This document shows, one piece after another, positions 2,571 to 59,892 of a stretch of 60,694 bases of DNA (position 1 is its first letter; each line of letters starts with the position of its first letter). This stretch comes from a virus, in the IMG/VR virus record IMGVR_UViG_3300026774_000001, positions 1 to 60,694 of that record; one strand, 5' to 3'. The notes under the pieces were generated by a model, which saw nothing but the letters and a program-made list of their open reading frames with translations, searched no databases and had not been told where the DNA came from. A program made the translations under genes and the position numbers.

Positions 2571-3053
2571 ATGCTCGACATGAACAATGATACCAGCTAC
2601 CACGATGATATGACAGACGACGTACTAGAGGAACGTTTCTGGGCGAAGGTCGACGCTTCCGGTGATTGCTGGGAATGGACAGCGGCGCTAGATCGCGGCT
2701 ACGGAATCTTCAACACGGACAGTCGTACTGAATACGCACATAGATATTCTTGGGAGACGTTGGTGGGTGTAATACCTATCAACAAACATCTGGACCATCT
2801 ATGCCGAAACAAACGTTGCGTGAACCCTGATCACCTGGAACCGGTGACAAACCAGGAGAACACGAAAAGGGGCGCGGCTGCGAGCGTACAGCGAAACCGT
2901 GCGCGCAGACAGACGCACTGCAAGATGAATCACGAGTTCACTGAGAAAAACACGCACATCAATACGAACGGCGCTCGCATCTGTCGAGAATGTCACCGCA
3001 ACCGGACTAGGGCGTTCAGGGACAAAAGACGGAAGGACAACAAAGATGCTTGA
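2571..3053 (+). CDS. HNH homing endonuclease (160 aa)
   Basis: YAHRYSWE...LDHLCRNKRCVNPDHLEPVTNQENTKR = HNH_3 pattern. Confidence 0.85.
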   Translation: MLDMNNDTSYHDDMTDDVLEERFWAKVDASGDCWEWTAALDRGYGIFNTDSRTEYAHRYSWETLVGVIPINKHLDHLCRNKRCVNPDHLEPVTNQENTKRGAAASVQRNRARRQTHCKMNHEFTEKNTHINTNGARICRECHRNRTRAFRDKRRKDNKDA

Positions 3054-4863
3054 AGGCACGAAACTTCACTTGGTAGACAACTGGGAGGACGCTACCAAAT
3101 TCATGGATTGGGTAGCTGGACTCAATACGGAACGCATTGCCTTCGACACCGAGGGTGAGGGCCTAAATGTCCGTAAGGATAAGGTTCGTCTGATTCAGTT
3201 CGGTGACCGGGAACAGGGCTGGGCTCTGCCCGTAGATCGTTGGCTCGGTATAGCTACCGAGGTGTTCGACCGATGGGCCGCGAGTGGTCGTCGCTTCGTA
3301 GGCCACAATGCCCGATATGACGCGGGAATGCTGAAAAAGCATGGTATCAACATCCCGACGCACCTCATTGACGACACGATGATGCTCGCAGCGGTGGCAA
3401 ATCCGTCAGTCCCACTCGGACTCAAATCCCAATCGGCACGACACATTGACCCCCGCGCCGCTGTGCTCCAGGGACAACTTGACGAGGTCATGCGTTCCAG
3501 CGGCAAGACATGGAAAGACATCCCCATCACCGCGGATGGACCATTTTCCACATACTGGATTTACGGCGCACTAGATGCCATCATTACCAATCGACTATGG
3601 GACCACCACGCGCCTGATGTATTCGCGAATGCGCCCAAATCCTACGACCTGGAAATCAGCGCTGGGTGGATGGCTTCCCGAATGGAGGCGGCCGGAGTCG
3701 AGTGCGACCGCGAGTACACCGCTGCGCAGCAGGGAGAGTTCGCGGGGATGTATGACGACTTGACCGCACGCATCAGCGCTGAATACGGTGTAGATGCAGG
3801 CTCCAAGGATCAGGTTGTCGCGGTGCTTCTCAAGGACGGAGTCCAGTTGTCCAAGCGGACCGATGGCGGCGCGTTCTCCCTGGACAAGGAGGTGTTGGGA
3901 ACGGTTGACCACCCACTTGTACACATGATCGCGCAGCGTCGCAAGATCGAAAAACTCAGCTCGACATACCTTCGACGCTTTCTCGAAGCGAGTGAGGATG
4001 ATGGGCGTATCAGAGCGTCGATCAACACCATCGGGGGATCGGGCAAGAGCGTAGGCGAGTCGGGTGGTATGTTTGGGGTGAGAACGGGGCGTATGTCCCT
4101 TTCATCCCCGAATCTGCAGCAGCTTCCCCGCGGTGGAGACCCGCTGTCTTCCGTGATCCGCAACTGCATCGTTGCCGGGGAAGGTAAGACTCTGGTGTCT
4201 GTCGACTTCGACCAGGCAGAGTTGCGCGTCATGGCGCACCTGTCCAAGGACCCCGGACTTGCGGCGGCGTTCGCGTCCACGGAAGACTTTTTCACAACGC
4301 TGACCCGACGCATCTACCACGATCCGAGCATCGTCAAGAGCGACTGGCGTAGGCAGCTTACGAAGTCTTACGTGTTCGCCACGCTGTATGGAGCTGGTAA
4401 CGACAAGCTCGCTACCACCACGGGCGTGCCGCTGGGGGAGGTCGAGGACTTGCAACGGGAGTTCAACGCCGCCTATACGGGTGTGCCCGCGTTTCAGCAC
4501 GCAATTCAGCGCGTAGCCAAGCAGCGGCAGCGCGACGAAGGCATTGCTTACGTACGCTCTCCGTTCACGAATCGCAAGTTCGTGGGCGAGCAGGGAAAGG
4601 AATACAAGCTCGTCAATTTCATTATCCAGGGTACGCAGGCCGAACTTCTCAAGATGAAAATGCTTGAAGTCGACGCTGCAGGGCTGGGAGACGCGATGCG
4701 GCTCCCGATCCACGACGAAATCATCCTTGAGGTAGACGACGAAGACGTGCCTGAGGCAGTGCAGACGCTCCGTGACGTTATGAACGACTCCACGCTCCTC
4801 TCGGTGCCGATCACCGCAGGAGTTGCCATCGGAAAGAAATGGGGCGAAAAGCGTGACATCTAA
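3046..4863 (+). CDS. DNA polymerase I (family A) with 3'-5' exonuclease domain (605 aa)
   Basis: Exo I FDTEGEGL; motif A VDFDQAELRVMAH; motif B RRQLTKSYVFATLYG; motif C PIHDEIILEV. Confidence 0.95.
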   Translation: MLEGTKLHLVDNWEDATKFMDWVAGLNTERIAFDTEGEGLNVRKDKVRLIQFGDREQGWALPVDRWLGIATEVFDRWAASGRRFVGHNARYDAGMLKKHGINIPTHLIDDTMMLAAVANPSVPLGLKSQSARHIDPRAAVLQGQLDEVMRSSGKTWKDIPITADGPFSTYWIYGALDAIITNRLWDHHAPDVFANAPKSYDLEISAGWMASRMEAAGVECDREYTAAQQGEFAGMYDDLTARISAEYGVDAGSKDQVVAVLLKDGVQLSKRTDGGAFSLDKEVLGTVDHPLVHMIAQRRKIEKLSSTYLRRFLEASEDDGRIRASINTIGGSGKSVGESGGMFGVRTGRMSLSSPNLQQLPRGGDPLSSVIRNCIVAGEGKTLVSVDFDQAELRVMAHLSKDPGLAAAFASTEDFFTTLTRRIYHDPSIVKSDWRRQLTKSYVFATLYGAGNDKLATTTGVPLGEVEDLQREFNAAYTGVPAFQHAIQRVAKQRQRDEGIAYVRSPFTNRKFVGEQGKEYKLVNFIIQGTQAELLKMKMLEVDAAGLGDAMRLPIHDEIILEVDDEDVPEAVQTLRDVMNDSTLLSVPITAGVAIGKKWGEKRDI

Positions 4864-5359: not shown

Positions 5360-7285
5360 ATGAATGAGATCTATGCCGATCTGGGCGAAGACGACCGGAT
5401 CGTCCTGTTCACACGTGATTTCAGCGGGAACCAGGATGAAACGCTGTGGAACGACTCCTATCAGATCAAGATGATCCCAGGCAAGAAGTGGGACCGCAAG
5501 GCGAAGCGCTGGACACTTCCGAAATCGTATGCCGCGTGCATCGTGCTGCGCGAGCTGTTCGGGGATCGGATCGTGGTCGAACCGGAGCTTGCCGCTTGGG
5601 CGCGTTCGGAACGGAATCGACGCGATGATGTCTTGCTACTTCGCGAGGCGTTGTCGATTGGTTGGGTCTCTCCGTACTTCAACGAGCACGATGCGATCCT
5701 GTACCCGTTCCAGGTGCCCGGACGTGACTTTCTGGTCAAAGCGCGCAATGCTCTCCTTGGTGACGAGATGGGAGTTGGCAAGAGTTTGCAGACATTGTCG
5801 GCAATTCGCGCCGTTGACTCCATCGGTGAGGCGTACCCCGCGCTCATCGTCTGCCCCAACTCCTTGAAACGGAACTGGGAACGCGAGATTCGCAGGTGGC
5901 TTCCCGAGGCGAACCCGTTCGTCATCCAGGGTAGCGCCGCGAAGCGCCGCGCCCAGATCACCGAGGCTGCGGAAGCCTCCAATGCCATCATCATCGTGAA
6001 CATCGAAGCGATGAAGCTGCATTCCCGCCTGTCTTCCTTCGGGTCGAACCGGCTCAAGCGGTGCATGGAGTGCGAAACGAAGACGCAACCAGGTACGCCG
6101 GACTTGAAAGAGTCCGCCTGCGAGGTGCATGAGAAGGAACTCAACCGCATCCCGTTCCGGGTGTGCGTGCTTGATGAGGCACACAGGGTGAAGGACCCTG
6201 CAGCCTTGCAGACCCGCGCCATCTGGAACGTGTTCCACGGTTCGACTGTCGAATACCGATGGGCGCTCACGGGTACGCCCGTGGCGAATCACCCTGGTGA
6301 CCTGTGGTCGATCGGGTACGCTATCGCGCCTGACGTGTTCCCCTCGAAGTCTGCCTTCATCGACCGATACGCCCGGATCGAATACAACCACTTTGGCGGC
6401 ATGTCGATTGTCGGCCTCAAGCCGGACACGAAAGAGGAGTTCTTCAAGATCCTTGACCCGCACTTCCGCCGCATGATCAAGGCCGATGTGCTCAAGCAGT
6501 TGCCCGACAAGGTGTTCATGCGGCGTGATGTCGAGATGAGCCCCAAGCAGGCGAAGGCGTACAAGGACATCGCCGAGCAATTGGTGACCGTACTTGAGGA
6601 CGGCACGGTGCTCGTCGCCAACGGGAACCTTGCTGGAGCAACCCGGTTGCTGCAGTTCGCGTCCGCGTACTGCGAGGTCGACCAGGGGGAGACTCCCGAG
6701 GACCCCGCCACGTGGCTTGTGTCGCTTACCGACAGCCCGAAGTCCTCGAAGATCGATGAACTCATGTCGATCATCGAAGACGATCCGGGCAAGCCGATGG
6801 TGATCGCCGCCGAACATCGGCAGCTCATCGACCTTGCAGCGGCCCGCATGACCGATGCCGGTATCCCGTTCGCTCGGGTGACCGGCGGCATCTCGGCTGA
6901 CGAGCGGGATGCTGCGGTGCAGGCGTTCCAGGACGGCAAGATCGACTACATCCTGTTCACGTACAAGGCCGGTGGGGTTGGGCTCAACCTCACGCGCGCT
7001 GACACTATGGTCAGACTCCAGAGAAGTTGGTCGATGATCGACAATAACCAGGGTGTTGACCGTATCCACCGCATCGGCTCCGAGGTGCACAACAAGGTGA
7101 CCATTATCGACCTGGTGGCCGCTGGCACGATCGAAGAGAAGCAACTTGAGCGGCTGTACGACAAGGCCGAACGGCTTGAGGAGATCGTGCGTGACCGCGC
7201 TAAGCTCCTTGCGCTAGGCAAGGCCACCGATGATCTGGACGCGGAAGCGGCACGGATCGAAGCAACCGGATTGATGGGAGGATAG
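5360..7285 (+). CDS. SNF2-family DNA helicase (641 aa)
   Basis: LGDEMGVGKS (motif I), LDEAHRVK (DEAH), helicase-C motifs QGVDRIHRIGS. Confidence 0.9.
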   Translation: MNEIYADLGEDDRIVLFTRDFSGNQDETLWNDSYQIKMIPGKKWDRKAKRWTLPKSYAACIVLRELFGDRIVVEPELAAWARSERNRRDDVLLLREALSIGWVSPYFNEHDAILYPFQVPGRDFLVKARNALLGDEMGVGKSLQTLSAIRAVDSIGEAYPALIVCPNSLKRNWEREIRRWLPEANPFVIQGSAAKRRAQITEAAEASNAIIIVNIEAMKLHSRLSSFGSNRLKRCMECETKTQPGTPDLKESACEVHEKELNRIPFRVCVLDEAHRVKDPAALQTRAIWNVFHGSTVEYRWALTGTPVANHPGDLWSIGYAIAPDVFPSKSAFIDRYARIEYNHFGGMSIVGLKPDTKEEFFKILDPHFRRMIKADVLKQLPDKVFMRRDVEMSPKQAKAYKDIAEQLVTVLEDGTVLVANGNLAGATRLLQFASAYCEVDQGETPEDPATWLVSLTDSPKSSKIDELMSIIEDDPGKPMVIAAEHRQLIDLAAARMTDAGIPFARVTGGISADERDAAVQAFQDGKIDYILFTYKAGGVGLNLTRADTMVRLQRSWSMIDNNQGVDRIHRIGSEVHNKVTIIDLVAAGTIEEKQLERLYDKAERLEEIVRDRAKLLALGKATDDLDAEAARIEATGLMGG

Positions 7286-10358: not shown

Positions 10359-10850
10359 ATGTACGTGGCGACAAACCGTCAGAAAAAGAACGCCTTCGCG
10401 AAGCGGGCCGACTTGCAGCGCAAGGCCGAGGAGAAACCCAAGGCCGCGCCTCGCGCGACCCCAACGCCCGTGGCCGAGCCGAAGCCTGATCTCGAAGCGC
10501 TGAAGGCTGCGGCGGCGCTGGCGGCTGCTCTCATTCACGCGGATGCACCTGACGAGCTGGAGACATCGGACGAGATTCAAGGGGGGTCTGGAACTGATTT
10601 GGAGCCCGAAGCCGAGGCCGAACCGGAGCCCAAGCGCGGCCGTCCGATGTCCGCTGCGGTCGCCAAGCGGAACGCTACGATCCTCCAGCTTCTCGCCGAG
10701 AACCCCGAAGGGCTGTCGAAGCCGCAGCTCGCTACGGAACTCCGAGAGAAGGAGGCGAACGTGTACACCTCGCTGCGCCGTCTCCAGAGTGACGGGAAGG
10801 TTCGGATGGAGAACACCGAAGGTACCAAGTACCTGTGGTACCTGGTCTGA
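10359..10850 (+). CDS. winged-helix DNA-binding protein with Lys/Ala/Pro-rich N-terminus (163 aa)
   Basis: C-terminal ILQLLAENPEGLSKPQLATELREKEANVYTSLRRLQSDGKV = MarR/wHTH-like. Confidence 0.6.
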   Translation: MYVATNRQKKNAFAKRADLQRKAEEKPKAAPRATPTPVAEPKPDLEALKAAAALAAALIHADAPDELETSDEIQGGSGTDLEPEAEAEPEPKRGRPMSAAVAKRNATILQLLAENPEGLSKPQLATELREKEANVYTSLRRLQSDGKVRMENTEGTKYLWYLV

Positions 10851-10880
10851 CCTGCGGAAACGTTCAGGGTTACCCCGGTG

Positions 10881-11911: not shown

Positions 11912-11984
11912 GCACCGTTAGCTCAATGGAACGAGCGGCTGTCTTACAAACAGCGGGTCGGGGGTTCGACTCCCTCACGGTGTA
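11912..11984 (+). tRNA. tRNA-Val (anticodon TAC)
   Basis: Hand-folded 73-nt cloverleaf: acceptor gcaccgt/acggtgt, D gctc-aatggaac-gagc, anticodon arm gctgt-cTTACaa-acagc, T-arm ggggg-ttcgact-ccctc; no encoded CCA. Confidence 0.85.
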
Positions 11985-12066
11985 CTAGGTTCCAGAGGAC
12001 GTAGCCGCTAAGTCGGTTGGCGTGGGGTCAACAAACGTGGATGTAGCGCACCACCTGGAACCGCTA

Positions 12067-12139
12067 GGGCTGTTAGCTCCAACGGTAGAGCATCTGCTTT
12101 GCAAGCAGAGGGTTGTCGGTTCGAATCCGACATGGTCCA
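12067..12139 (+). tRNA. tRNA-Ala (anticodon TGC)
   Basis: 73-nt cloverleaf: acceptor gggctgt/atggtcc with G3:U70 Ala identity pair, D gctc-caacggta-gagc, anticodon arm tctgc-tTTGCaa-gcaga, T-arm gtcgg-ttcgaat-ccgac. Confidence 0.88.
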
Positions 12140-12190
12140 CGCGGGGAGGTTGGGCGCGCTGTGCGTGTTCGGCGCTCCGCACTACAACAT

Positions 12191-14424: not shown

Positions 14425-14577
14425 ACCGTGCCAGCGGCACACCCGCTGGCACACCGAAAACCACGATTGACCTGCGGAAACACTGTTTCGGCACACCGGC
14501 ACAGTGTGCCGAGAGTACCGCTCACTAAGTGTTTTCGCAGGTCACCGCGACCCTAGGAACAACCCGCCTGGTGTGCC
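14397..14577. repeat. intergenic array of 8-mer GGCACACC (5 forward, 3 reverse copies)
   Basis: Forward 14397, 14436, 14448, 14490, 14498 (half); reverse 14414, 14504, 14570. Confidence 0.8.
14468..14544. repeat. 17-bp inverted repeat TGACCTGCGGAAACACT / AGTGTTTTCGCAGGTCA
   Basis: 16/17 complementary arms at 14468-14484 and 14528-14544, flanking palindrome ggcacaGtgtgcc. Confidence 0.8.
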
Positions 14578-14635: not shown

Positions 14636-15109
14636 ATGACTGACGTAGTCGCCATCGAATCCACCCTGGGGAACGGTGCTGCGGGGTTCGTTGCCCTGGT
14701 GCTGTTCGCCGTCGCATGGATCATCAACGAGAAAGCCAACGGGAACAAAGCGGGTGCCATCTTTGCGCTGGTGCTCGCACTCGCCGGGTCGTTCGTGCTG
14801 TACGCGTCCACCTGGTCAGAGACCTGGTGCGGCTGGATGGGGAGCATCCTCACCGGTATCGGGGACATGTTCGGCGCTGAGATGTCGCTACCGTTCATGT
14901 TCAGCATGGCCTGCGTCGCCGCGGTCTTCATCATCGCGGTTGACCTGGGCGTGAACGCTAAGGACAACCCCTGGGCTGTCGGGGCCCTCCTGGTCGCCCC
15001 TGTGGTCGCCCACGGTGCTTCGGGCATCATCGGGAGCATGGCGCATGGGTTCTTCGGGGGGATGGCCCTGGGAGTTATCGAAGCACTCAAGTCATTGACG
15101 GGTGCCTGA
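14636..15109 (+). CDS. Gly/Ala-rich polytopic membrane protein (157 aa)
   Basis: ORF track; SD gaaagga; 4-5 TM helices. Confidence 0.7.
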   Translation: MTDVVAIESTLGNGAAGFVALVLFAVAWIINEKANGNKAGAIFALVLALAGSFVLYASTWSETWCGWMGSILTGIGDMFGAEMSLPFMFSMACVAAVFIIAVDLGVNAKDNPWAVGALLVAPVVAHGASGIIGSMAHGFFGGMALGVIEALKSLTGA

Positions 15110-16952
15110 CATGACCGAGAACGTAGAGAACAAACCGAATGCGCTCGCGCGCACGGCGCGCACCTCGTGGGGTTACACCCTGCGGGGTGCGCGCGCGCTC
15201 GCCGAAGATGCGCGCGCATGGACGCGCGCGGAAGGAATCGAAGCGCACATTCGGGAAAAGGATGCGCGCGCAATCGAATCGCAGCACCAACGAGCGATGC
15301 GCGCGCATGCGCGCAACGCGAAACGCAGAGGTGCGCGCGCGATTCCTCCGGTGCGCGCGCATGCGTTCACCGACCTCGAAGTGAATGCGCGCGCATTCGG
15401 AACGCGCGCATTCCGATGCGCGCTCACTCTTGCCGCACCGGCGTGCGCGCTCATCGCTCCGCCATGGATGTGCGTTGAAGGCAACCCCGGCGCGCTCCTC
15501 GCGTGGCCCGCTGCGTACGCATACCTGGCGTGGCTTGGCTGGACGAACCGCGAAGATTCGGAGCTGTCTGAGGTTATCTCGGTGACCACGCTGCCGCAGG
15601 CACCTACCGAAGAGAAGACGCGTCTGTTCTCTCGGAACCGCGTCGAGACGGGACTCAAGCCCAACGCACAGGAGTCGGCGATCATCAACCGGATTCACAC
15701 TTGGGAGGTGAACGCAGCGGATCGCAAGCTGCATGAGGTGTTCCCCGGCTCGCCGATCATCGATGAGTCCGGCATACTCATCCCAATGGAGTTCGCAGGG
15801 CTGTGGACGCCCGCGAAGCTCGATAACCAGGTGGACCAACTGCGAGCACTGCTCGCGGTTCCCGATGAGGTCAAGACGCAAGTCAAGCCTGGCGGTACCG
15901 CTGACCGTGCGGTCCTGCGTATTCGCACGCGAGTGCGGGACTTGGACCTCACCTGGTCACCGGAGCGCAAAGGGCTCGGCCTCAATGCCGACACGGGCGA
16001 AGTCGTCAGTGTCGACGTGACCGACCGCCTCAGCGTCGCGGGCATGTCGGGAGCGGGCAAGTCCGTTGCGCTGCGCGTACTCATGGCGGAAGCGCTCGGG
16101 CTGCCAAACACCGCGCTGGTCATCATTGACCTTAAGGTGGAAGGTGCGCTCTGGGCGCATGTCGCGCGCGTCGAGTCCGAGGCAGACGGTATCCAGTCGG
16201 TCATTGACGACCTGGTGACCGAGATGAAGGAGCGCGAGGCGATCATGCGAACCGAAAGCCTGGACACTTGGGAGCCAACGCCTGAGCGTCCGCGCATCGT
16301 CGTTGTCGTTGACGAAGGGGCTGAGCTGATGTCCGAGGTCCCCGACTCCGTGACCGGCCTGCGTTCGATCGCGCGTCGTGCAAGGTCGGCAGAGATCCCG
16401 CTGTGGTGGGCCACGCAGAAGCCCACCGTGACCGGACCGGGCAAGGGACTCGACTCCGCGATTTCGGCTCAGCTCACCTCACAAGTGTGCATGGCCGTGT
16501 CCAGCCCGACCGAGGCGCGCAACGTCCTCGGAGAGGATGCCACCGCTAAGGGATGGCACGCGGAAGACCTGCTTAAGGGCGGGTGGTCGCTCGTGCGCGT
16601 GCAGGGTGAGGACCGAACCCCGGACCCTACCCGCGTGTGGCACATGACAAAGGAGGACGTGAAGGCTATCGCCCCGCGTTCCCCGTGGCGTCGGGCGAAG
16701 ACGCTGGCCCCCGTGGTCGATGCGAAAGACGCTCTGGTGGTCGCGTTGGACCTGTCCGAGGGATTGCAGGGTGTGTCTACGGTCCGTATCGGCGTTGCTC
16801 TCGGCGTCTCTGACGCTGAGGTGCACGTGCGTATGCGCGTGCACGGTGTCGATCCGGAACCCAACGCCTTCGCGATGGGCAACGGGGAGAAGGCCCGTGG
16901 ATACCGCAGAGATAAGCTTGAAGCAGCGTTCAACAGGAGGAATGACCGATGA
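15102..16952 (+). CDS. FtsK/SpoIIIE/TraB-like DNA translocase (616 aa)
   Basis: Walker A GMSGAGKS, Walker B IVVVVDEGAEL, two N-terminal TM helices, basic ARA-rich N-terminus, possible C-terminal wHTH; start GTG 15102 or ATG 15111. Confidence 0.85.
   Translation: MPDMTENVENKPNALARTARTSWGYTLRGARALAEDARAWTRAEGIEAHIREKDARAIESQHQRAMRAHARNAKRRGARAIPPVRAHAFTDLEVNARAFGTRAFRCALTLAAPACALIAPPWMCVEGNPGALLAWPAAYAYLAWLGWTNREDSELSEVISVTTLPQAPTEEKTRLFSRNRVETGLKPNAQESAIINRIHTWEVNAADRKLHEVFPGSPIIDESGILIPMEFAGLWTPAKLDNQVDQLRALLAVPDEVKTQVKPGGTADRAVLRIRTRVRDLDLTWSPERKGLGLNADTGEVVSVDVTDRLSVAGMSGAGKSVALRVLMAEALGLPNTALVIIDLKVEGALWAHVARVESEADGIQSVIDDLVTEMKEREAIMRTESLDTWEPTPERPRIVVVVDEGAELMSEVPDSVTGLRSIARRARSAEIPLWWATQKPTVTGPGKGLDSAISAQLTSQVCMAVSSPTEARNVLGEDATAKGWHAEDLLKGGWSLVRVQGEDRTPDPTRVWHMTKEDVKAIAPRSPWRRAKTLAPVVDAKDALVVALDLSEGLQGVSTVRIGVALGVSDAEVHVRMRVHGVDPEPNAFAMGNGEKARGYRRDKLEAAFNRRNDR
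15140..15455. repeat. array 2 of alternating-GC palindromes (ATGCGCGCGCAT family)
   Basis: About 10 copies: 15188, 15208-15219 ATGCGCGCGCAT, 15222, 15262, 15297-15308 ATGCGCGCGCAT, 15332, 15351, 15383-15398 GAATGCGCGCGCATTC (16-bp perfect palindrome), 15403. Confidence 0.85.
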
Positions 16953-18227: not shown

Positions 18228-18727
18228 GGACGGTAGGTCGCGGTGTAGCTGACGGGGATACTCGTCCATGTCCCCGCCGACCCTTGCGTCTGGAATACGA
18301 ACATACTGAATCCCGTAGTCGAGATGTTGATAGCCCTGGAGCACCACAGCGCCGTTGCGCCCGCACCGGAATCGATGTTGGTCAACACTCGCGGTGCGGC
18401 AGGGAAAGTGAACCCGAACGACACGGAAGACGTGTTGGAGGAAACGGACGTGAAAGTCACGTTGGTAGTGCCGGTACGTGTCCAGTTGGTCAGGTTGGTG
18501 ATGCTGGTTTGCCCGGCAGCGATATCGACACCGAGATCAGTGATCTCCCCATTGATATCGGCGATATCATCCGTGAGCCCGTCAATCTGGCCCGACAGTG
18601 TGTTCAGCGCACCGTCCACCTGAACCGCGAGGATGGGAGAGACATTCCCAGGACCGCCGGTCAGCGTGATACCGGGTAGTGACGATGGGGACTCGTATTC
18701 TAGACCCCAGTTGGTAGTTGAAGGCAC
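18224..18727 (-). CDS. minor tail / tail fibre protein (167 aa)
   Basis: Last gene of leftward structural block; N-terminal PGITLTG..PILA motif shared with 18739..19566. Confidence 0.6.
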   Translation of the reverse strand: MPSTTNWGLEYESPSSLPGITLTGGPGNVSPILAVQVDGALNTLSGQIDGLTDDIADINGEITDLGVDIAAGQTSITNLTNWTRTGTTNVTFTSVSSNTSSVSFGFTFPAAPRVLTNIDSGAGATALWCSRAINISTTGFSMFVFQTQGSAGTWTSIPVSYTATYRP

Positions 18728-25535: not shown

Positions 25536-26410
25536 TTATTTCCCGCGTTTCCTGCCGCTCACTCCCGGTGCGGTCAACGTCGCCATGGCCGCTTTCGAAT
25601 TGAAGTTGTTCGTCTTGTCGTCCCCGTACCATGCGGGTTTCGGAGCGCGCTTGCGCTCCGGTCTGCCGTTCCGCGGAGCCGCGATTGCCTTCGCAACTGC
25701 GGGACCTGCTTTCTGCATGTCCCACTCCGCCACCTTCTCAGCGATCACCGCATCGAATTTGTCTTTGTCCTCGGTTGAAGCGTTGCGCGTGGCAAAGTAG
25801 TACACCAAGTTGAGCCATTGATCCCAAGGCAGTTGCAAGTGGTCGACGTTGCGTGAAGCGCACCAACCGTCGAAGGTGGGCCACACCTGATCCGATGTGG
25901 CCCAATCCTCTAGGGAGATTGCGGCAACGTAATGCCTTTTCCCAGTGCTTCACCGATCACCCAAGTGAGAATTTCGTAGAACGCCCCGATGTCGATCGCA
26001 TCGTATTCGCCATCGAATCGACGCTTGAAGCGGCCGAGCGATTCGGACTCGAAGACTTCGGCAAGCAGCTTGAAGATCGGCTCAGTTGCATCACGGTCAA
26101 CGTTTTCATCCGCGGCGAGTGACTGAATTTCGATCGCCTTACGGTAGACCGCAAGCGCAGCAGGACTGACGGGTTCAGCCCCATCAGGGGAAACGAGTGC
26201 CAGAATTTCACCCGCGAGACGAGAGAACTCATCGACACGCGGATCCCTCATCGTTTCTGCGGGTGCCTGAGCTGCTGCCTGCATTTCCCCGGCAAGACGG
26301 GAAAGCTCGGTCATCCGCCCAGCGGGAACACTCGCCTTAAGGCTGAACACCTCATCGTCGATGTCGAATTCGATGGGTTCTTTCCGCGTGGTAAAGCTCT
26401 TACGAGTCAT
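25536..26410 (-). CDS. tail assembly chaperone G-T fusion via -1 programmed frameshift
   Basis: ORF 25536..25886 lies in the -1 frame relative to 25910..26410 and that frame is open from the slippery site at 25943. Confidence 0.7.
25910..26410 (-). CDS. tail assembly chaperone (G-like, 166 aa)
   Basis: Position immediately upstream of tape measure; acidic protein. Confidence 0.75.
   Translation of the reverse strand: MTRKSFTTRKEPIEFDIDDEVFSLKASVPAGRMTELSRLAGEMQAAAQAPAETMRDPRVDEFSRLAGEILALVSPDGAEPVSPAALAVYRKAIEIQSLAADENVDRDATEPIFKLLAEVFESESLGRFKRRFDGEYDAIDIGAFYEILTWVIGEALGKGITLPQSP
25937..25943 (-). promoter_or_regulatory. -1 frameshift slippery heptamer G GGA AAA
   Basis: Minus strand reads ctG GGA AAA ggc, 9 codons before the G stop. 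Confidence 0.7.
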
Positions 26411-26767: not shown

Positions 26768-27331
26768 CTAGCTGATATCGCAGGGGTAGCCACCGTTGGG
26801 GACGCCGATCTGCACCGTAATCGCAGATCCTTGGCAGCCGCCCATAGGCCCCACCATGGTTTGCGGTCCGATCGTGTACCGGTCGAAGAGCTTCACACCG
26901 TTAGTGCGTGTGGAGCCTGCGCACAGGCAGCACATGAGGCCAGCGCGAACCGCCCATGCGTCTTCGATAGACACGCGTGCCGCGGCGTCAACCTCTGAGC
27001 ATGGAGGGGGATTGCCCATGTCGTCACCCGTAGGGGAGCACCGGAGCATCGACACCGTGTATTGGAAGACGAACAAAGGTGGCCCGCACTTGCGCATACC
27101 GTCGTTCTGTGCCGCATCCCAGGGGTTCGGGAACGTGCCCGAATCGTACGGGCGGTCAAGCGACACGACGAGCTGCCCGCACTCGCAGTCGTCCCAGGCG
27201 ATTTGCCCCGTCGTGATGCACACGCGACTAGGGAGACCCGTGGTCGTTCCCCCAAGATAGGGGAGGATGCAGTCTCGCAAGTGCTCAGCGAGTTCATAAC
27301 CGGCGAACGGGTTTGCGTTGGTGAACACCAT
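26768..27331 (-). CDS. Cys-rich virion-region protein (187 aa)
   Basis: Internal ATG 27331 (TGATG overlap with upstream stop); about 13 Cys. Confidence 0.6.
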   Translation of the reverse strand: MVFTNANPFAGYELAEHLRDCILPYLGGTTTGLPSRVCITTGQIAWDDCECGQLVVSLDRPYDSGTFPNPWDAAQNDGMRKCGPPLFVFQYTVSMLRCSPTGDDMGNPPPCSEVDAAARVSIEDAWAVRAGLMCCLCAGSTRTNGVKLFDRYTIGPQTMVGPMGGCQGSAITVQIGVPNGGYPCDIS

Positions 27332-53659: not shown

Positions 53660-53781
53660 GGGAATTCCCGGGAACATAGGTGGGAACAGGACCCATGTGC
53701 TGACATATGGCCTGACCTGCAATTCCTACCAAACAACATAACTTTCGGGAAGTGTTGTTCCCACAACCGTTCCCAGTTCCC
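53660..53781. repeat. inverted clusters of hexamer GGGAAC (3 forward, 3 reverse)
   Basis: GGGAAT/GGGAAC at 53660, 53670, 53682; GTTCCC at 53757, 53769, 53776; non-coding region. Confidence 0.6.
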
Positions 53782-53783
53782 GC

Positions 53784-53808
53784 CAAAGTTGAGCCACCAA
53801 GGCTCAAC
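53784..53808 (-). terminator. terminator of leftward replication block
   Basis: gttgagcc / ggctcaac stem overlapping stop 53804, TTT on minus strand. Confidence 0.55.
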
Positions 53809-54307
53809 TCTCAATACCGGGACGTTCCGGGAACTTGCCACCCATGGACGCATGACGGGACGAAAGCTCGCGCCCAACCTCCGCCAGCGCGGTGCGCAAC
53901 TCCACGGTGGCCGCGGCCCACTGCTCGTCCGTCAATTCCGCGGCCTGTAGGGCCCTCTGGAGGACTCCGGCGATCATCCGCGCCTCTGCTTGCACACTCT
54001 CGATGTAACGCTCTGAGAGGCCCGCTGAGACGGCCGCACGGGCCACCTGCGCCCCGTGGGCGCGTTCCTCCCGCCCGAGGCGCACCCACTCCCGCAACTC
54101 GCGCCCTGCGCGGCTCCGCGCGATCTCGAATTTCTCGGGCTCCCAGTCGTGCTCCTGCGCCTCCAACTCGGCTTCACGTTGGATCTCTTTGCCGATCCGT
54201 TCCTCAAGCCACAGGATCCGGTACCCGGATCGCCGAACCTCGCTCAGGATCGCGTCCCACGGGGCAACGTCGACTTCGCCCTTATGCGGCATCTGCTTGG
54301 CACTCAT
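53804..54307 (-). CDS. helical Glu/Arg/Ala-rich protein (167 aa), unknown function; candidate iteron-binding protein
   Basis: ORF track; starts immediately below the iteron region. Confidence 0.6.
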   Translation of the reverse strand: MSAKQMPHKGEVDVAPWDAILSEVRRSGYRILWLEERIGKEIQREAELEAQEHDWEPEKFEIARSRAGRELREWVRLGREERAHGAQVARAAVSAGLSERYIESVQAEARMIAGVLQRALQAAELTDEQWAAATVELRTALAEVGRELSSRHASMGGKFPERPGIES

Positions 54308-54364
54308 GCGTTTTCCCAGCTCCTAGCGTTTTCGTGTCTCGGATTGTGCCCCTGACCAGGCGAT

Positions 54365-54824
54365 GCAGGGGTAGAACAGGGGTAGAAATTCTACCTCTGC
54401 AGGGTCTGACCTGCGAAAACAGGCCAAATGCAGGGGTAGACAGGGGTAAAACGCGTGTTTGCTCACCACCTATAAGAGCACAGTAATATATTACTCTATT
54501 TCTCATGTACATTAATCATCATTCTACCCCTGGCTACCTCTGCAGTATTTTAGTGTTTTCCCTAGTAGAAGTACTTGGAAAGCCTTTTCCAAGTCTGCAG
54601 AGGTACCGAGGTCACAGCCCCAATCTACCCCTGATCTACCTCTGCATTTACCCCTGCTACCCCTGCAAACTCGCCGGACGAGCATACTCTCAGTAGTTCC
54701 GTCATAACTTTCGCCTTCACGCTTCGAAGCCGCTATAGGTACTCACAGTGAAACCGGACAAAAAATGCAGGGGTAGTGCAGGGGTAGCAGGATCTACCCC
54801 TGCACACCTCCGCGCTACCCCTGC
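54365..54824. repeat. iteron array (16 copies of GCAGRGGTAG) flanking an AT-rich core; putative origin of replication
   Basis: Forward copies 54365, 54376, 54430, 54440, 54597, 54767, 54778; reverse 54391, 54524, 54534, 54625, 54636, 54648, 54657, 54794, 54815; AT-rich 54471-54523. Confidence 0.7.
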
Positions 54825-54843
54825 ATTCACGCAGTGCACGCAT

Positions 54844-56556
54844 TCACCTACTGCTAGTCTCGATCGTCCACAGGTATCCGGCCCGCGTGGACTTCTCGCT
54901 CTTGCACACCATGATGTCCCTGAACCAGGTCCGGTCCTTGTAGTCCAAGAACTTGGTGAGCGAGCTTTTGAACGACGCGTCGGAGAACCCGTTCCACCGG
55001 TGGGCGAGCGCGTTCGGCATGGCGTCCTGCAGGTCGGTACCGAACTTGAGTGCGTCCACGATCTCCCGGCACGTGATCGGCTTCGTGCCGAACTGCGATC
55101 GGAGCGCGTGCAGGAACACCCACCATTCCTCATCCTCGGCGGTCATGCCGAGCTGTGTCGACGTGGCGTCGAACTCGTCGCCGAGTCCTGCGTGCTGCAG
55201 GATGCCCGAAACCATCTGACGCCACTGGGCGTATGAGTCCGAACTCGTGGCCGCTGGCATCTGCGCACCCGCGTACAGCCATGACCGGATCACGGTCATG
55301 AGCGCTGACAGGTACGGGCCGCGGTTGTTCGACATCCATCCGACAGGGTTGGCGATTTGGAATCCGGTACGCTTCTCGGGTTCGGGACCGGCGTCGAGCC
55401 GGATCTTGAGGACACGCCGCGCCATGTCCCCTCCGAAGGTGACGTTGTTGCCCGTCACCATCCACAACCTGTCGTTGGGCAGGATCGCGTCAACGTTCCC
55501 GCCGAGCAGTCGGTCTGACCAGGTTTCAGCGGTGAGCAGCGCTTCAAGCGATGCCGACTTGACCATGCCGCGCACGTTGTCGAACACGATGATCCCTTCG
55601 GAGCCGAGCAGCGCCGTGGTGATCGTCTTCTTCATCTCAGACTCTTTGTCGGGCAGGGAGCCGCGGAGGGTACCGCCGTGGAGTTTGCGGAGCATGCCGA
55701 CGAGGAATCCTTTACCCGAACCGGAGTTGCGCGCCCCGACCTCGACCATCTTGTACGGTGCGGGAGAGAGGTAGCGCAGCAGCGGGGTGAACGCGCAGCC
55801 GAACCAGTTGCACCGGTCGGCTTCGGTTTCGAACGGGAACTGCGAGAACGGGTACTTGATAAGCGTTGCGGCTTCAAACAGTGCTTGCCGCGTGGGCTCT
55901 TCGGGGACATGGATTTTCAACCCCTCTTCGGGCTGGTACAGCATCTTGGTAACCGAGTCGTAACCGGGCTGGTCGATGAGTTCGCCATCAGCGCGGAACA
56001 GGGGGATGCTGGTGATCCCTTGGATCTCGCGCGCGTTGTTCAGTCGGTGAACGGCTCCGATTGCGTTTTCAGCAGGCACCAAAGGGAAGTTGATGTCAAC
56101 TTCCCCCCTGTCTTTCACGTGCTTGATCGACCGGAACGTGTAGTCGATTTCAGCGCGCAACTGCTTGGCGTTCAGCGGTTGAATCGCGCCGGGGATGATG
56201 CGGACCAGGTTGCCCTGCCTGCGAAACAGGTGATCGAGTTCACCGACGCCGACACGACGAGAAAGCCACAGGTGCAGACTTGCGGGCTCCGTGGCATCGC
56301 ACAGGGGGCGATCGGCGTCGGTGACCGCGGAGTCGTTGACAACTGCGGGAACGGTAACGGAGGGTTCTGGAACGTCGTCCGCGATATCGCCGAACATCAT
56401 CCGACGAAGATCGTCACTTGATGCACTGGTAGTATTAGTGCTATCATCTTCCATGAATAAATCCTTTGAGGCCATATTGCGTTGGTTTGCGAGGGTGGCA
56501 CTATGCCGAGTGCCGACGAGCAGGGCCCTAGTTTCCGCTAGGGCCCTGCCGCACAT
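54844..56556 (-). CDS. D5/P4-type (SF3-like) replicative helicase / primase-associated NTPase (570 aa)
   Basis: Walker A GARNSGSGKG, Walker B IIVFDNVRG; TGATG coupling with upstream gene. Confidence 0.65.
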   Translation of the reverse strand: MCGRALAETRALLVGTRHSATLANQRNMASKDLFMEDDSTNTTSASSDDLRRMMFGDIADDVPEPSVTVPAVVNDSAVTDADRPLCDATEPASLHLWLSRRVGVGELDHLFRRQGNLVRIIPGAIQPLNAKQLRAEIDYTFRSIKHVKDRGEVDINFPLVPAENAIGAVHRLNNAREIQGITSIPLFRADGELIDQPGYDSVTKMLYQPEEGLKIHVPEEPTRQALFEAATLIKYPFSQFPFETEADRCNWFGCAFTPLLRYLSPAPYKMVEVGARNSGSGKGFLVGMLRKLHGGTLRGSLPDKESEMKKTITTALLGSEGIIVFDNVRGMVKSASLEALLTAETWSDRLLGGNVDAILPNDRLWMVTGNNVTFGGDMARRVLKIRLDAGPEPEKRTGFQIANPVGWMSNNRGPYLSALMTVIRSWLYAGAQMPAATSSDSYAQWRQMVSGILQHAGLGDEFDATSTQLGMTAEDEEWWVFLHALRSQFGTKPITCREIVDALKFGTDLQDAMPNALAHRWNGFSDASFKSSLTKFLDYKDRTWFRDIMVCKSEKSTRAGYLWTIETSSR

Positions 56557-58892: not shown

Positions 58893-59774
58893 TCACACGT
58901 TCCCGGCTCGCCTGCCCGCCTGCCAGCCGCTTTCGAACGTCCTACGTTGGGATGACTCATCATCGTTCGCCCCGATGGAGAACATGACGGTCCGAAGCTC
59001 GGACCACGCCTCATCAGCGCTCATGGTGCCCATCTTCCCGAGCCGGTACGCGGCGACGTTCAGTTCGTTGTTGCGGGTCCCCGGTGCCGCGTTCCCGAGC
59101 CGGTCAAGCACCCGTTCGGCTTCGCGCTCTGCTGCAGCACTGCCCGGTTCGAACTGCGGTTCGTATCGCTCCGCACGCTCAGGCTTGCGCGTCAACTCCA
59201 CGAGCCAATCGGGAGCCGGGAGGATCATCGTACGCCTGATACCGTCCCGCGGGACCACTTGATAGCCTCCGCAGCCCGGAGCTTTCACGAGGCCCCCGAT
59301 GCCCTTCACGTCCAGGTTTGGTGCCAGGTGGCCGGATGAGTCGCTGCGAACGCCGCCTTCTGCGTCTGCGATCTCGTCCCAGCGGAAGTAGAGGTGCGCC
59401 CCGCCCGAGGGCGTGGCGACGGTCATGGTTCGGGTGAACTCCTCGACGCCAGCGCCGTTCACCTTTGCGAGGTCGCGGAACACCTCGAACCCGTTGATAC
59501 CGTGCTTGGTATCAATGTCCAAGATCCACACCCCCGAACCGGGCCCCGTGGCGATCCCCACGGGATACCCTGTGAACTCCCCGCCTGCCCACCACTCCCG
59601 GATCTGGTCGAGATCAGCAGTGGCGCGTTCTTTCCAGCCTTCGATGGCGGGGCGCTTGGTTCCGGGAACCAGCGGAAAGACCTTGAACCCGAGCTGCGAG
59701 CAGGCGTACGCCACCGCTCCTGAGCTGGGAGCTTGCCCCCCGGCTGCGGTTTCATCGAACTTTACAGTAGTCAC
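58893..59774 (-). CDS. bifunctional primase-polymerase (Prim-Pol, AEP family) (293 aa)
   Basis: GFKVFPLVPGTKRPAIEGW...WILDIDTKHG (DxD)...GGAHLYF pattern; GTG start. Confidence 0.85.
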   Translation of the reverse strand: MTTVKFDETAAGGQAPSSGAVAYACSQLGFKVFPLVPGTKRPAIEGWKERATADLDQIREWWAGGEFTGYPVGIATGPGSGVWILDIDTKHGINGFEVFRDLAKVNGAGVEEFTRTMTVATPSGGAHLYFRWDEIADAEGGVRSDSSGHLAPNLDVKGIGGLVKAPGCGGYQVVPRDGIRRTMILPAPDWLVELTRKPERAERYEPQFEPGSAAAEREAERVLDRLGNAAPGTRNNELNVAAYRLGKMGTMSADEAWSELRTVMFSIGANDDESSQRRTFESGWQAGRRAGNV

Positions 59775-59832: not shown

Positions 59833-59892
59833 TGCGCTACCGGGACAACCCGCTGACGATTGCAATGATCGAAGATGATGAAGGGACACACC

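Follow-up and report, generated by a model that had tools for sequence, protein, structure and literature searches.

A predicted helicase-read iteron origin of replication in an uncultured tailed phage

Introduction

We analyzed a DNA stretch of 60,694 nucleotides, IMG/VR virus record IMGVR_UViG_3300026774_000001 (hereafter, the window), which is a tailed-phage genome of 60.7 kb. Between the gene for a predicted D5-like superfamily 3 (SF3) helicase and the gene for a 167-aa helical protein, the window carries a field of short repeats (iterons) around an AT-rich core. This study concerns that field, which we predict to be the phage's origin of replication, and the protein that would recognize it. 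To our knowledge, the origins that Actinomycetota phages use in their lytic cycle are largely unmapped.

The minimal replicon of the Streptomyces plasmid pWTY27 consists of repB (Prim-Pol), repA, and an adjacent 300-bp non-coding "iteron" sequence (Wang et al., PMC3583192). Deletion of the iteron region abolished replication, adding the region back restored it, and the region was required in cis. His-tagged RepA bound iteron DNA specifically in electrophoretic mobility shift assays and left footprints on the arms, not the centre, of a 105-bp inverted repeat, IR2; the authors suggested that RepA recognizes folded IR2. The locus replicates bidirectionally. In that paper RepA is "hypothetical", the word "helicase" has zero mentions, and the SF3 nature of the protein went unrecognized; related rep-iteron loci of pFP1 and pFP11 are cited there (PMC3583192).

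The Rep proteins of Staphylococcus aureus pathogenicity islands (SaPIs) are SF3 helicases that need no loader: their C-terminal winged helix binds iterons located immediately 3' of rep (PMC9371898). In the SaPI origin, the centre is AT-rich and is flanked on each side by two or more iterons, those of one side running opposite to those of the other (PMC9371898). In the archaeal plasmid pRN1, the origin is a 100-nt stem-loop 3' of the gene for a Prim-Pol/SF3/winged-helix protein (PMC4234260).

Results

An iteron field surrounds the AT maximum of the genome

The field lies in a 536-bp non-coding gap (54308-54843) between two minus-strand genes, a 570-codon open reading frame (ORF) for the helicase (54844..56556) and a 167-codon ORF (53804..54307), the same neighbours that a preliminary description of this DNA had given. 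That description had also counted 16 copies of a 10-bp unit, and we recovered this number with GCAGGGGTAG: at ≤2 mismatches, exactly 16 copies lie in 54365-54824, versus 0.58 per 550 bp in the remaining genome. One more degenerate copy lies near 54805-54813. At ≤1 mismatch, the whole window holds 16 matches, 14 of them within the field; shuffled sequence gave 2.5 per 60.7 kb, and none of 100 shuffles attained 16. The only two copies outside the field, at 26780 and 51273, correspond to the chance level (2.5 expected).

The AT-rich stretch at 54471-54523, which had been put at about 25% GC, measures 24.5% over its 53 bp, while the genome mean is 60.2%. This core is the lowest-GC window of the genome at 50, 80, and 100 bp (26%, versus 34% for the next 50-bp window). 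Two iteron pairs, 54524/54534 (-) and 54430/54440 (+), bracket the core and face inwards. The two pairs are 87% complementary and make up an inverted repeat of 23 nt around an AT-rich spacer of 70 nt, the counterpart of IR2 in pWTY27. The layout thus agrees with that of a SaPI-type origin: the iteron array directly follows the helicase gene, and its AT-rich centre has two or more iterons per side, oppositely directed.

Read in the helicase sense, the gap starts with cluster I, a spacer of ~90 bp that varies among lineages, cluster II, motif A with an inverted copy, a palindrome, two direct copies, and the AT-rich core. Past the core come two inverted copies (54449-54430), motif B, one direct and two inverted copies (54400-54365), motif C, and the 167-aa gene. 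The parts, in that order after the whole field, are:

54365..54824, both orientations: the iteron field, inside the gap
54755..54830, minus strand: cluster I, three direct copies (54815-54824, the degenerate one at ~54805-54813, and 54794-54803) and two inverted copies (54778-54787 and 54767-54776)
54625..54666, minus strand: cluster II, four tandem direct iterons (54657, 54648, 54636, 54625) with a spacing of 9-12 bp, their positions kept in the gap alignment
54606..54619, plus strand: motif A, invariant CCGAGGTCACAGCC (GGCTGTGACCTCGG in the helicase sense), on the strand opposite to motifs B and C
54597..54606, plus strand: single degenerate iteron GCAGAGGTAC, adjoining motif A, a conserved GGTCA motif
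54574..54593, no strand assigned: small conserved palindrome CTTGGAAAGCCTTTTCCAAG (consensus TGGAAAAGGCTTTCC) from the gap alignment, a weak hairpin (z -2.0)
54524..54543, minus strand: helicase-proximal iteron pair, directed towards the AT-rich core
54471..54523, no strand assigned: AT-rich core, the presumed DNA-unwinding element, holding a 14-bp perfect palindrome AGTAATATATTACT at 54482-54495
54430..54449, plus strand: far-side iteron pair, inverted relative to 54524-54543
54405..54420, minus strand: motif B, invariant GTTTTCGCAGGTCAGA, which is the dispersed TGACCTGCGAAAAC motif
54365..54400, no single strand: cluster III, one minus-strand copy (54391-54400) facing two plus-strand copies (54365-54374 and 54376-54385)
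54347..54362, minus strand: motif C, invariant CGCCTGGTCAGGGGCA (consensus CCGCAGGTCAGAGGC), just upstream of the ribosome-binding site of the 167-aa gene

Most of the orientations reported earlier stand. The forward-forward-reverse-reverse set is as described, with 54767/54778 (+) and 54794/54815 (-), and the dispersed motif noticed inside the field was found as TGACCTGCGAAAAC at 54407-54420. The two larger blocks are not uniform: the "forward" block contains a reverse copy (54391-54400) and the "reverse" block a forward one (54597-54606).

At the Rfam gathering threshold no RNA family was found in the gap, and the only hits were two tRNAs, both elsewhere in the window. A permissive Rfam scan of the gap gave only sub-threshold microRNA and small nucleolar RNA noise from hairpins. 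By eye, likeness to a DnaA box reached only 6/9 (TTGTCCGGT), in the spacer between clusters I and II.

Relatives keep the layout and replace the word

We fetched 15 metagenomic relatives (L numbers below), with helicase identities from 99% down to 39%. All 15 keep the order helicase, gap, 167-aa homolog, and no gene was called in the equivalent gap of any of them. The gap measures 517-549 bp in 13 lineages and is shorter in the distant L011 (375 bp, 15 copies) and L017 (315 bp, 5 copies). Each gap carries a repeated word of 9-11 bp, in ~11-16 copies in 14 of the 15 relatives. When the 13 gaps were aligned, the positions and orientations of the repeats were conserved but their sequence was replaced. 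Across the helicase lineages there are 10 different words, eight of them on the aligned scaffold:

TGCAGGGGTAG: the window, L001, L005, L009, L010
GGTAGACTTGG: L002, L006
GGTGCACTTGG: L003, L007
GGTGGACTTAG: L008
GGTAGAGATAG: L013
GGTGTAGCTGG: L014
TCGGAGATAG: L015
TGCGGGGTCT: L016
TTGCGGTGTT: L011
GGGGTTAAG: L017

Parts of the AT-rich core are conserved as well. Its palindrome GAGAAAnAGAGTAATATATTACTG is perfect over 14 bp here and over 16 bp in most relatives, and CAGTAATATATTACTG is conserved in 11 of 13 lineages. A fixed layout with a replaced word would be expected of protein sites that co-evolve with their reader, and not of a coding region, an RNA gene, or chance repeats.

The word tracks the C-terminal end of the helicase

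We wondered which protein reads the repeats. The last ~100 residues are the most variable segment of the helicase. Among six closely related helicases, pairwise identities by segment were:

L007 versus L002, L006, and L008, different iterons: N-terminus 85% identical (L002) or 53% (L006, L008), ATPase core 96%, C-terminal segment 52-68%
L003 versus L007, near-identical iterons (10/11 bases): N-terminus 61%, core 88%, C-terminal segment 80%
L002 versus L006, same iteron: N-terminus 56%, core 95%, C-terminal segment 89%

In a partial Mantel analysis controlling for the core, iteron similarity correlated with C-terminal identity, both for the last ~100 residues (rho 0.53, permutation p 0.001) and for the last ~55 residues (rho 0.39, permutation p 0.001). 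As far as these comparisons go, the iteron word tracks the last 50-100 residues of the helicase and not its N-terminus, its ATPase core, or the 167-aa protein. The helicase C-terminal domain is thus the likely reader of the iterons.

The preliminary description had named two possible binders, the 167-aa protein and the D5-like protein, the latter through its N-terminus. The helicase is the one that our comparisons favour, but through its other end. We rejected the N-terminus, which is acidic and was modelled at low confidence: it is 85% identical between L002 and L007, which have different iterons, and 56% identical between L002 and L006, which share one. We rejected the 167-aa protein too, whose identities are discordant with iteron type. 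The window's copy is 96-97% identical to that of L008, 92% to that of L002, and 87-88% to that of L007, all with different iterons, and only 73-74% to that of L001 and 67% to those of L009 and L010, which have the same iteron.

The 167-aa gene (53804..54307, minus strand) is the last gene of the operon; its product falls in PHROG 3678, of unknown function, and carries an invariant block, REERAHGAQVARAAVSAGLSERYIESVQAEA. It had no Pfam match at E≤0.01, marginal inconsistent ones at E≤1, one weak NCBIfam match below the cut-off, and no PDB match. In comparisons of the window with L008, L002, L013, and L007, the product is 87-97% identical though the helicases are ~65% identical and the gaps cannot be aligned right up to the start codon. 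This pattern marks the start codon of the 167-aa gene as a sharp mosaic (recombination) junction.

Co-variation with the helicase also bears on two other functions that such an array might have. Short-repeat arrays in both orientations occur at some terminase binding sites, and the preliminary description held a packaging site to be the main alternative to an origin. The field would then be a pac or cos site for the small terminase subunit. However, the large terminase gene (43345..45075) lies ~9.3 kb from the field with the head genes downstream of it, the word co-varies with the helicase C-terminus, and the same arrangement occurs on a 14-kb Streptomyces plasmid and on many chromosomal elements. 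A packaging site is therefore extremely unlikely. The field could also be the centromere-like partition site of a plasmid-type prophage, since 10-bp repeats that are direct and inverted and spaced by about one turn of the helix are reminiscent of centromeres of the parC/parS type. But no ParA/ParB-type match was found among the ~20 larger ORFs scanned, specificity follows the helicase rather than a small DNA-binding protein, and the neighbouring 167-aa protein does not co-vary with the repeats. We regard a partition site as hardly credible and an origin read by the helicase as the better account of the field.

The proposed reader has the fold of a D5-like SF3 helicase

The gene and its proposed DNA-reading domain are:

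54844..56454, minus strand: D5-like SF3 helicase gene, the proposed initiator; the first ATG of the ORF is at 56556
54847..55140, minus strand: C-terminal domain of the helicase, the proposed iteron reader, residues ~439-536 of 536

The homologs are 532-541 aa long and start at the equivalent of 56454 (MEDD...). The real start is therefore probably the Met at 56454, and the first ATG at 56556 over-extends the gene by 34 codons.

The helicase had no match in Pfam or NCBIfam. PHROG profiles of "DNA polymerase/primase" fusion proteins aligned, through their C-terminal half, with residues 177-509 of the helicase. We obtained an AlphaFold model with a mean pLDDT (predicted local distance difference test) of 90.7, using 70 sequences. 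In Foldseek the full-length model matched, at E 5e-10 to 1e-7 and probability 1.00, the helicase region of the phage NrS-1 polymerase, the poxvirus D5/E5 proteins, the PrimPol of African swine fever virus, and SaPI PriRep5 (7OLA) and PriRep1 with double-stranded DNA (7PDS), the last two at E ~1e-7 to 1e-8. Because of these fold matches, we assign the modelled protein to the D5-like SF3 helicases. Only fold comparison succeeded: a PDB sequence search with the profile of the helicase family gave nothing at E≤1. The helicase belongs to a very large family, for which 18,493 cluster representatives were counted at E≤1e-3. For the Walker A motif, we noted GAGKT in P0004 and GSGKS in pWTY27 RepA, and a Gly after the Lys is unusual for an active P-loop ATPase; the motif of the window is taken up below.

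The model shows four helices and then a beta-hairpin in the C-terminal domain; residues 493-505 make up a putative recognition helix, and strands 514-523 and 526-533 the wing. We provisionally call it winged-helix-like, on the basis of this topology and of weak winged-helix matches.

The closest match in an isolated phage was Pas55 of Actinoplanes phage phiAsp2. We rejected it as a comparable locus: Pas55 is a 1415-aa fusion protein and the gap downstream of its gene is only 79 bp.

The locus is homologous to the pWTY27 replicon

A tblastn search against plasmids matched the 14.3-kb Streptomyces plasmid pWTY27 (E 3e-47). By BLASTP, the window helicase and pWTY27 RepA are 32% identical over 411 columns (E 5e-56), and the alignment extends into the C-terminal domain. 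The likeness includes the neighbouring primase gene, which in both cases is upstream, in the same orientation, and in the same transcription unit:

58893..59774, minus strand: Prim-Pol primase gene (PF09250, E 8e-27), the equivalent of pWTY27 repB and the first large gene of the operon

The minus-strand operon runs from Prim-Pol through small ORFs to the helicase ORF, the gap, and the 167-aa gene, and converges on plus-strand genes. The synteny of Prim-Pol and helicase is retained in relatives. In both systems, a non-coding iteron region directly follows the initiator gene, and a terminator-like hairpin follows the stop codon. The pWTY27 region, read in the repA sense, carries direct and inverted copies of GTGGGAAC/GTTCCCAC, and its lower-GC centre is flanked by two of them per side. 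The differences are that the window is a 60.7-kb tailed phage with its own Pol I-type polymerase (Pol A) whereas pWTY27 is a 14-kb conjugative plasmid, that Prim-Pol and helicase genes are ~2.3 kb apart here, with small ORFs between them, but overlap in pWTY27, and that the conserved AT palindrome of 14-16 bp is extra here.

The SaPI Rep/ori systems (Rep1/PriRep5) share with this locus the SF3 fold, iterons right downstream, an adjacent or fused primase, and specificity types that vary among related elements; as in the SaPI Reps, we propose that the C-terminal domain reads the iterons. In contrast, sequence similarity to the SaPI proteins is undetectable, host phylum and element type differ, and the field here has three iteron clusters and invariant non-iteron motifs.

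Taken together, these results suggest that bidirectional (theta-type) replication of the phage very probably starts in the field, and that the SF3 helicase is its own recognition protein, acting via its C-terminal domain. The origin proposed in the preliminary description is thus supported by the conserved scaffold with its swapped word, by homology to pWTY27 RepA, and by the structural class of the SaPI Reps. Such an origin belongs to a known type, the helicase-read iteron origin of pWTY27 and the SaPIs.

Several points weigh against this reading. The cumulative GC skew, one of the checks that had been suggested, has its minimum at 59851 (a divergent transcription switch) and its maximum at 18724, neither of them at 54.4 kb; because these extremes coincide with switches in the direction of transcription, the skew is uninformative rather than contrary. 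Globally, the partial Mantel analysis links iteron similarity to the helicase N-terminus too (rho 0.49, p 0.006), so the N-terminus is excluded by the discordant pairs only. In the window and most close relatives, the Walker A motif (region 55708-55722, residues ~245-249 of 536) reads GSGKG and not GK[S/T]. With the isolated C-terminal domain, Foldseek found nothing significant: the lowest E was 0.24, and the weak matches include winged-helix domains of KIN17, ORC/Cdc6, MCM6, and IscR. Finally, the iterons are longer and more numerous than those of the comparable systems: 10-11 bp in 16 copies over 460 bp, versus 7-8 bp in ~10 copies over 300 bp in pWTY27 and 5-6 bp in 6-12 copies in SaPIs.

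Hairpins built from the iterons

Cluster I forms a long hairpin followed by T6 directly past the helicase stop codon (RNA fold -48.5 kcal/mol, z -5.8). An iteron-built hairpin with a U-rich stretch was also found in L001, L002 (weak U stretch), L003, L013, and L015, and in all lineages examined the hairpin is made from the lineage's own word (-36 to -54 kcal/mol, z -3.6 to -7.6). Because hairpin and U-run recur in every lineage examined, cluster I probably doubles as a terminator or attenuator of helicase-operon transcription ahead of the origin core, besides being a binding site.

The same hairpins could be taken to mean that the field is mainly a regulatory array. Bound to the repeats, the helicase (or some other protein) would then terminate or repress transcription of its own operon and of the 167-aa gene, and the origin would lie at another place. 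A sigma-70-like promoter match (TTCGCA-18-TAGAAT) that overlaps motif B and an iteron would fit this view, as would the regulatory role proposed for 3' binding sites in RepAM elements (PMC2440964). However, 16 sites over 460 bp around the AT minimum exceed the needs of an operator or terminator, and the homologous iteron DNA of pWTY27 is needed in cis for replication. Regulation and origin function are also compatible rather than mutually exclusive. We therefore consider it quite improbable that the array is regulatory and the origin elsewhere.

The inverted iteron pairs, folded as single strands, likewise give long hairpins (z -3.4 to -8.0). These might point to an origin that works through an extruded stem-loop or cruciform, possibly with a nick (rolling-circle or strand-displacement replication), as proposed for RepAM elements and pRN1. 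The pRN1 stem-loop has the same place 3' of its replication gene, and the suggestion that RepA of pWTY27 recognizes folded IR2 goes in the same direction. Against such an origin, no inverted partner lies near the four tandem direct repeats of cluster II, and a stem alone does not require that the same word be used 16 times. In addition, pWTY27 replicates bidirectionally, and scanning the helicase for an HUH or rolling-circle replication nuclease motif or domain detected none. The chance of a stem-loop origin thus seems slim. None of the rival explanations fits the co-variation together with the homology to pWTY27.

GGTCA motifs on either side of the core

Unlike the iterons, the GCAGGTCAGA motifs are kept across lineages with different words and in pWTY27, although its initiator is only 32% identical, on opposite strands either side of the core. 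In pWTY27, CTGACCTGCGG lies upstream of the centre and GCGCAGGTCAGA downstream; these GCAGGTCAGA-type sequences are the counterparts of motifs A and B. The longer form GTTTYCGCAGGTCA has six matches in the window at ≤2 mismatches, versus 0.43 expected. The dispersed copies are:

10848-10861, plus strand
14468-14481, plus strand
14531-14544, minus strand
48816-48829, plus strand
~53713-53720, strand not assigned
54407-54420, plus strand, inside the field

All dispersed copies are intergenic, and they are mostly antisense to the flanking genes. The motif is also dispersed in relatives (L003:11772, L011:6361, L014:6737), several of which have one copy just past the 167-aa gene. We tried motif B as a promoter and found this unsupported: GGTCA and the nearest candidate -10-like hexamers are 5 to 13 nt apart, depending on the site, and the majority of the dispersed copies run antisense to their neighbouring genes.

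A more tentative idea, which we think doubtful, is that (C)GCAGGTCAGA is an invariant second signal, a recognition or priming site for Prim-Pol or for a conserved part of the helicase, like ssiA/ssiB of RSF1010. If so, the iterons would set the identity of the replicon and the GGTCA motifs would set where DNA synthesis starts.

Iteron fields accompany related helicases in actinobacteria

We scanned actinobacterial genomes, one per species, and obtained 294 loci encoding relatives of the helicase (in Streptomyces, Amycolatopsis, Saccharopolyspora, Actinoplanes, and others). Among the 71 loci that could be analysed, 76% had some 8-mer in at least five exact copies (median 8) in the 450 bp that follow the stop codon. 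By the same criterion, three kinds of control window scored 0% (median 2). The words are often variants of TCCC(C/T)GCA or AAAC(A/C)CCGC and resemble ACCCCTGCA of the window. GCAGGTCA is enriched 4.7-fold 3' of these helicase genes, with inverted copies at ~+50 to +80 and direct copies mostly at ~+175 to +260, and a locus in Streptomyces caeruleatus displays the whole plan. As a rule, chromosomal elements of Streptomyces, Amycolatopsis, Saccharopolyspora, and others thus carry an iteron field 3' of the helicase or Prim-Pol-helicase gene.

In pMEA300-type elements, RepAM binds 8-bp repeats at the 3' end of repAM (PMC2440964). By analogy, these repeats may be the same phenomenon as the helicase-linked iteron fields.

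The rest of the genome

No match came from a megablast search of 50,697 phage records with the 4 kb surrounding the field, and a helicase scan of viral_contigs found no relatives. The host is probably an actinobacterium, because the best phage matches, themselves weak, were to phages of Micrococcus, Microbacterium, and Arthrobacter.

The structural genes are on the minus strand from ~45 kb to 19 kb and encode the large terminase, portal, major head protein, and tape measure. Pol A is encoded at 3046..4863 and an SF2 helicase at 5360..7285. In relatives L001, L003, and L017, Pol A and Prim-Pol are encoded on opposite strands, Pol A being a few kb upstream. Because the ends of the window (the Pol A side and the Prim-Pol side) adjoin in these relatives, the comparison suggests that the window is a complete, circularly permuted genome.

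Two ordinary tRNAs (Val and Ala) lie at 11912-12140. ARAGORN called a 99-nt "tRNA-Pyl" with a CUA anticodon at 25853-25951 (-), in the tail-gene region; Rfam gives no confirmation of it at the gathering score, and it is either a false positive or an odd suppressor-type tRNA. An FtsK/SpoIIIE-like translocase gene lies at 15102-16952 (+; PHROG 17958, E 9e-56). This is the type of the conjugative translocase of Streptomyces plasmids such as pWTY27, hinting at an exchange of modules with this phage group.

Discussion

The comparisons point to an origin that its own helicase would recognize. We propose that subunits of the helicase bind the iterons with their C-terminal winged-helix-like domain, and that the helicase assembles on both sides of the AT-rich palindrome, probably as two hexamers, and melts this palindrome without a separate loader. 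The Prim-Pol of the operon would then prime and the phage's Pol A would extend.

Other described systems resemble parts of this scheme. Like the phage P4 gp-alpha system, the locus combines a primase function, an SF3 helicase, and a C-terminal domain that would recognize short iterons (PMC4234260). However, the P4 primase is a Toprim enzyme fused to the helicase whereas Prim-Pol is separate here, and P4 needs a distant second iteron cluster (crr) whereas the window has only its two chance-level copies outside the field. ORF904 of pRN1 likewise has Prim-Pol, SF3 helicase, and a C-terminal winged helix, with an origin downstream, after a terminator hairpin, whose sequence diverges while its structure is retained (PMC4234260). 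It differs in that all domains are in one polypeptide of an archaeal plasmid and in that the origin is a single stem-loop without iterons. The lambdoid O/ori-lambda system and the iteron plasmids (RepA, pi, TrfA) share initiator-specific iterons next to an AT-rich unwinding region, and co-variation of initiator and iterons. In those systems, a dedicated winged-helix initiator recruits the host or phage helicase via a loader, and lambda has its iterons within the O gene. In the window, by contrast, the iterons occupy non-coding DNA, and it appears to be the helicase itself that reads the origin.

Our analysis gives a precise, testable candidate origin and initiator for an uncultured lineage of 60-kb phages. 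It links the "hypothetical" RepA of Streptomyces theta plasmids to the SaPI paradigm of the self-loading SF3 helicase. What it adds to the known systems is a series of ten words, mostly on one scaffold, the assignment of specificity to the helicase C-terminus, and a rule for finding origins in a very large family: for annotation, one should seek a word repeated at least five times within 450 bp 3' of this helicase gene. Each of the eight words on the aligned scaffold is paired with small changes in a C-terminal segment of ~50 residues, which amounts to a set of specificity swaps. Such a set could help in decoding protein-DNA recognition, in designing orthogonal, mutually compatible replicons for actinomycetes, and in explaining how relatives that infect the same cell keep their origins from cross-talk.

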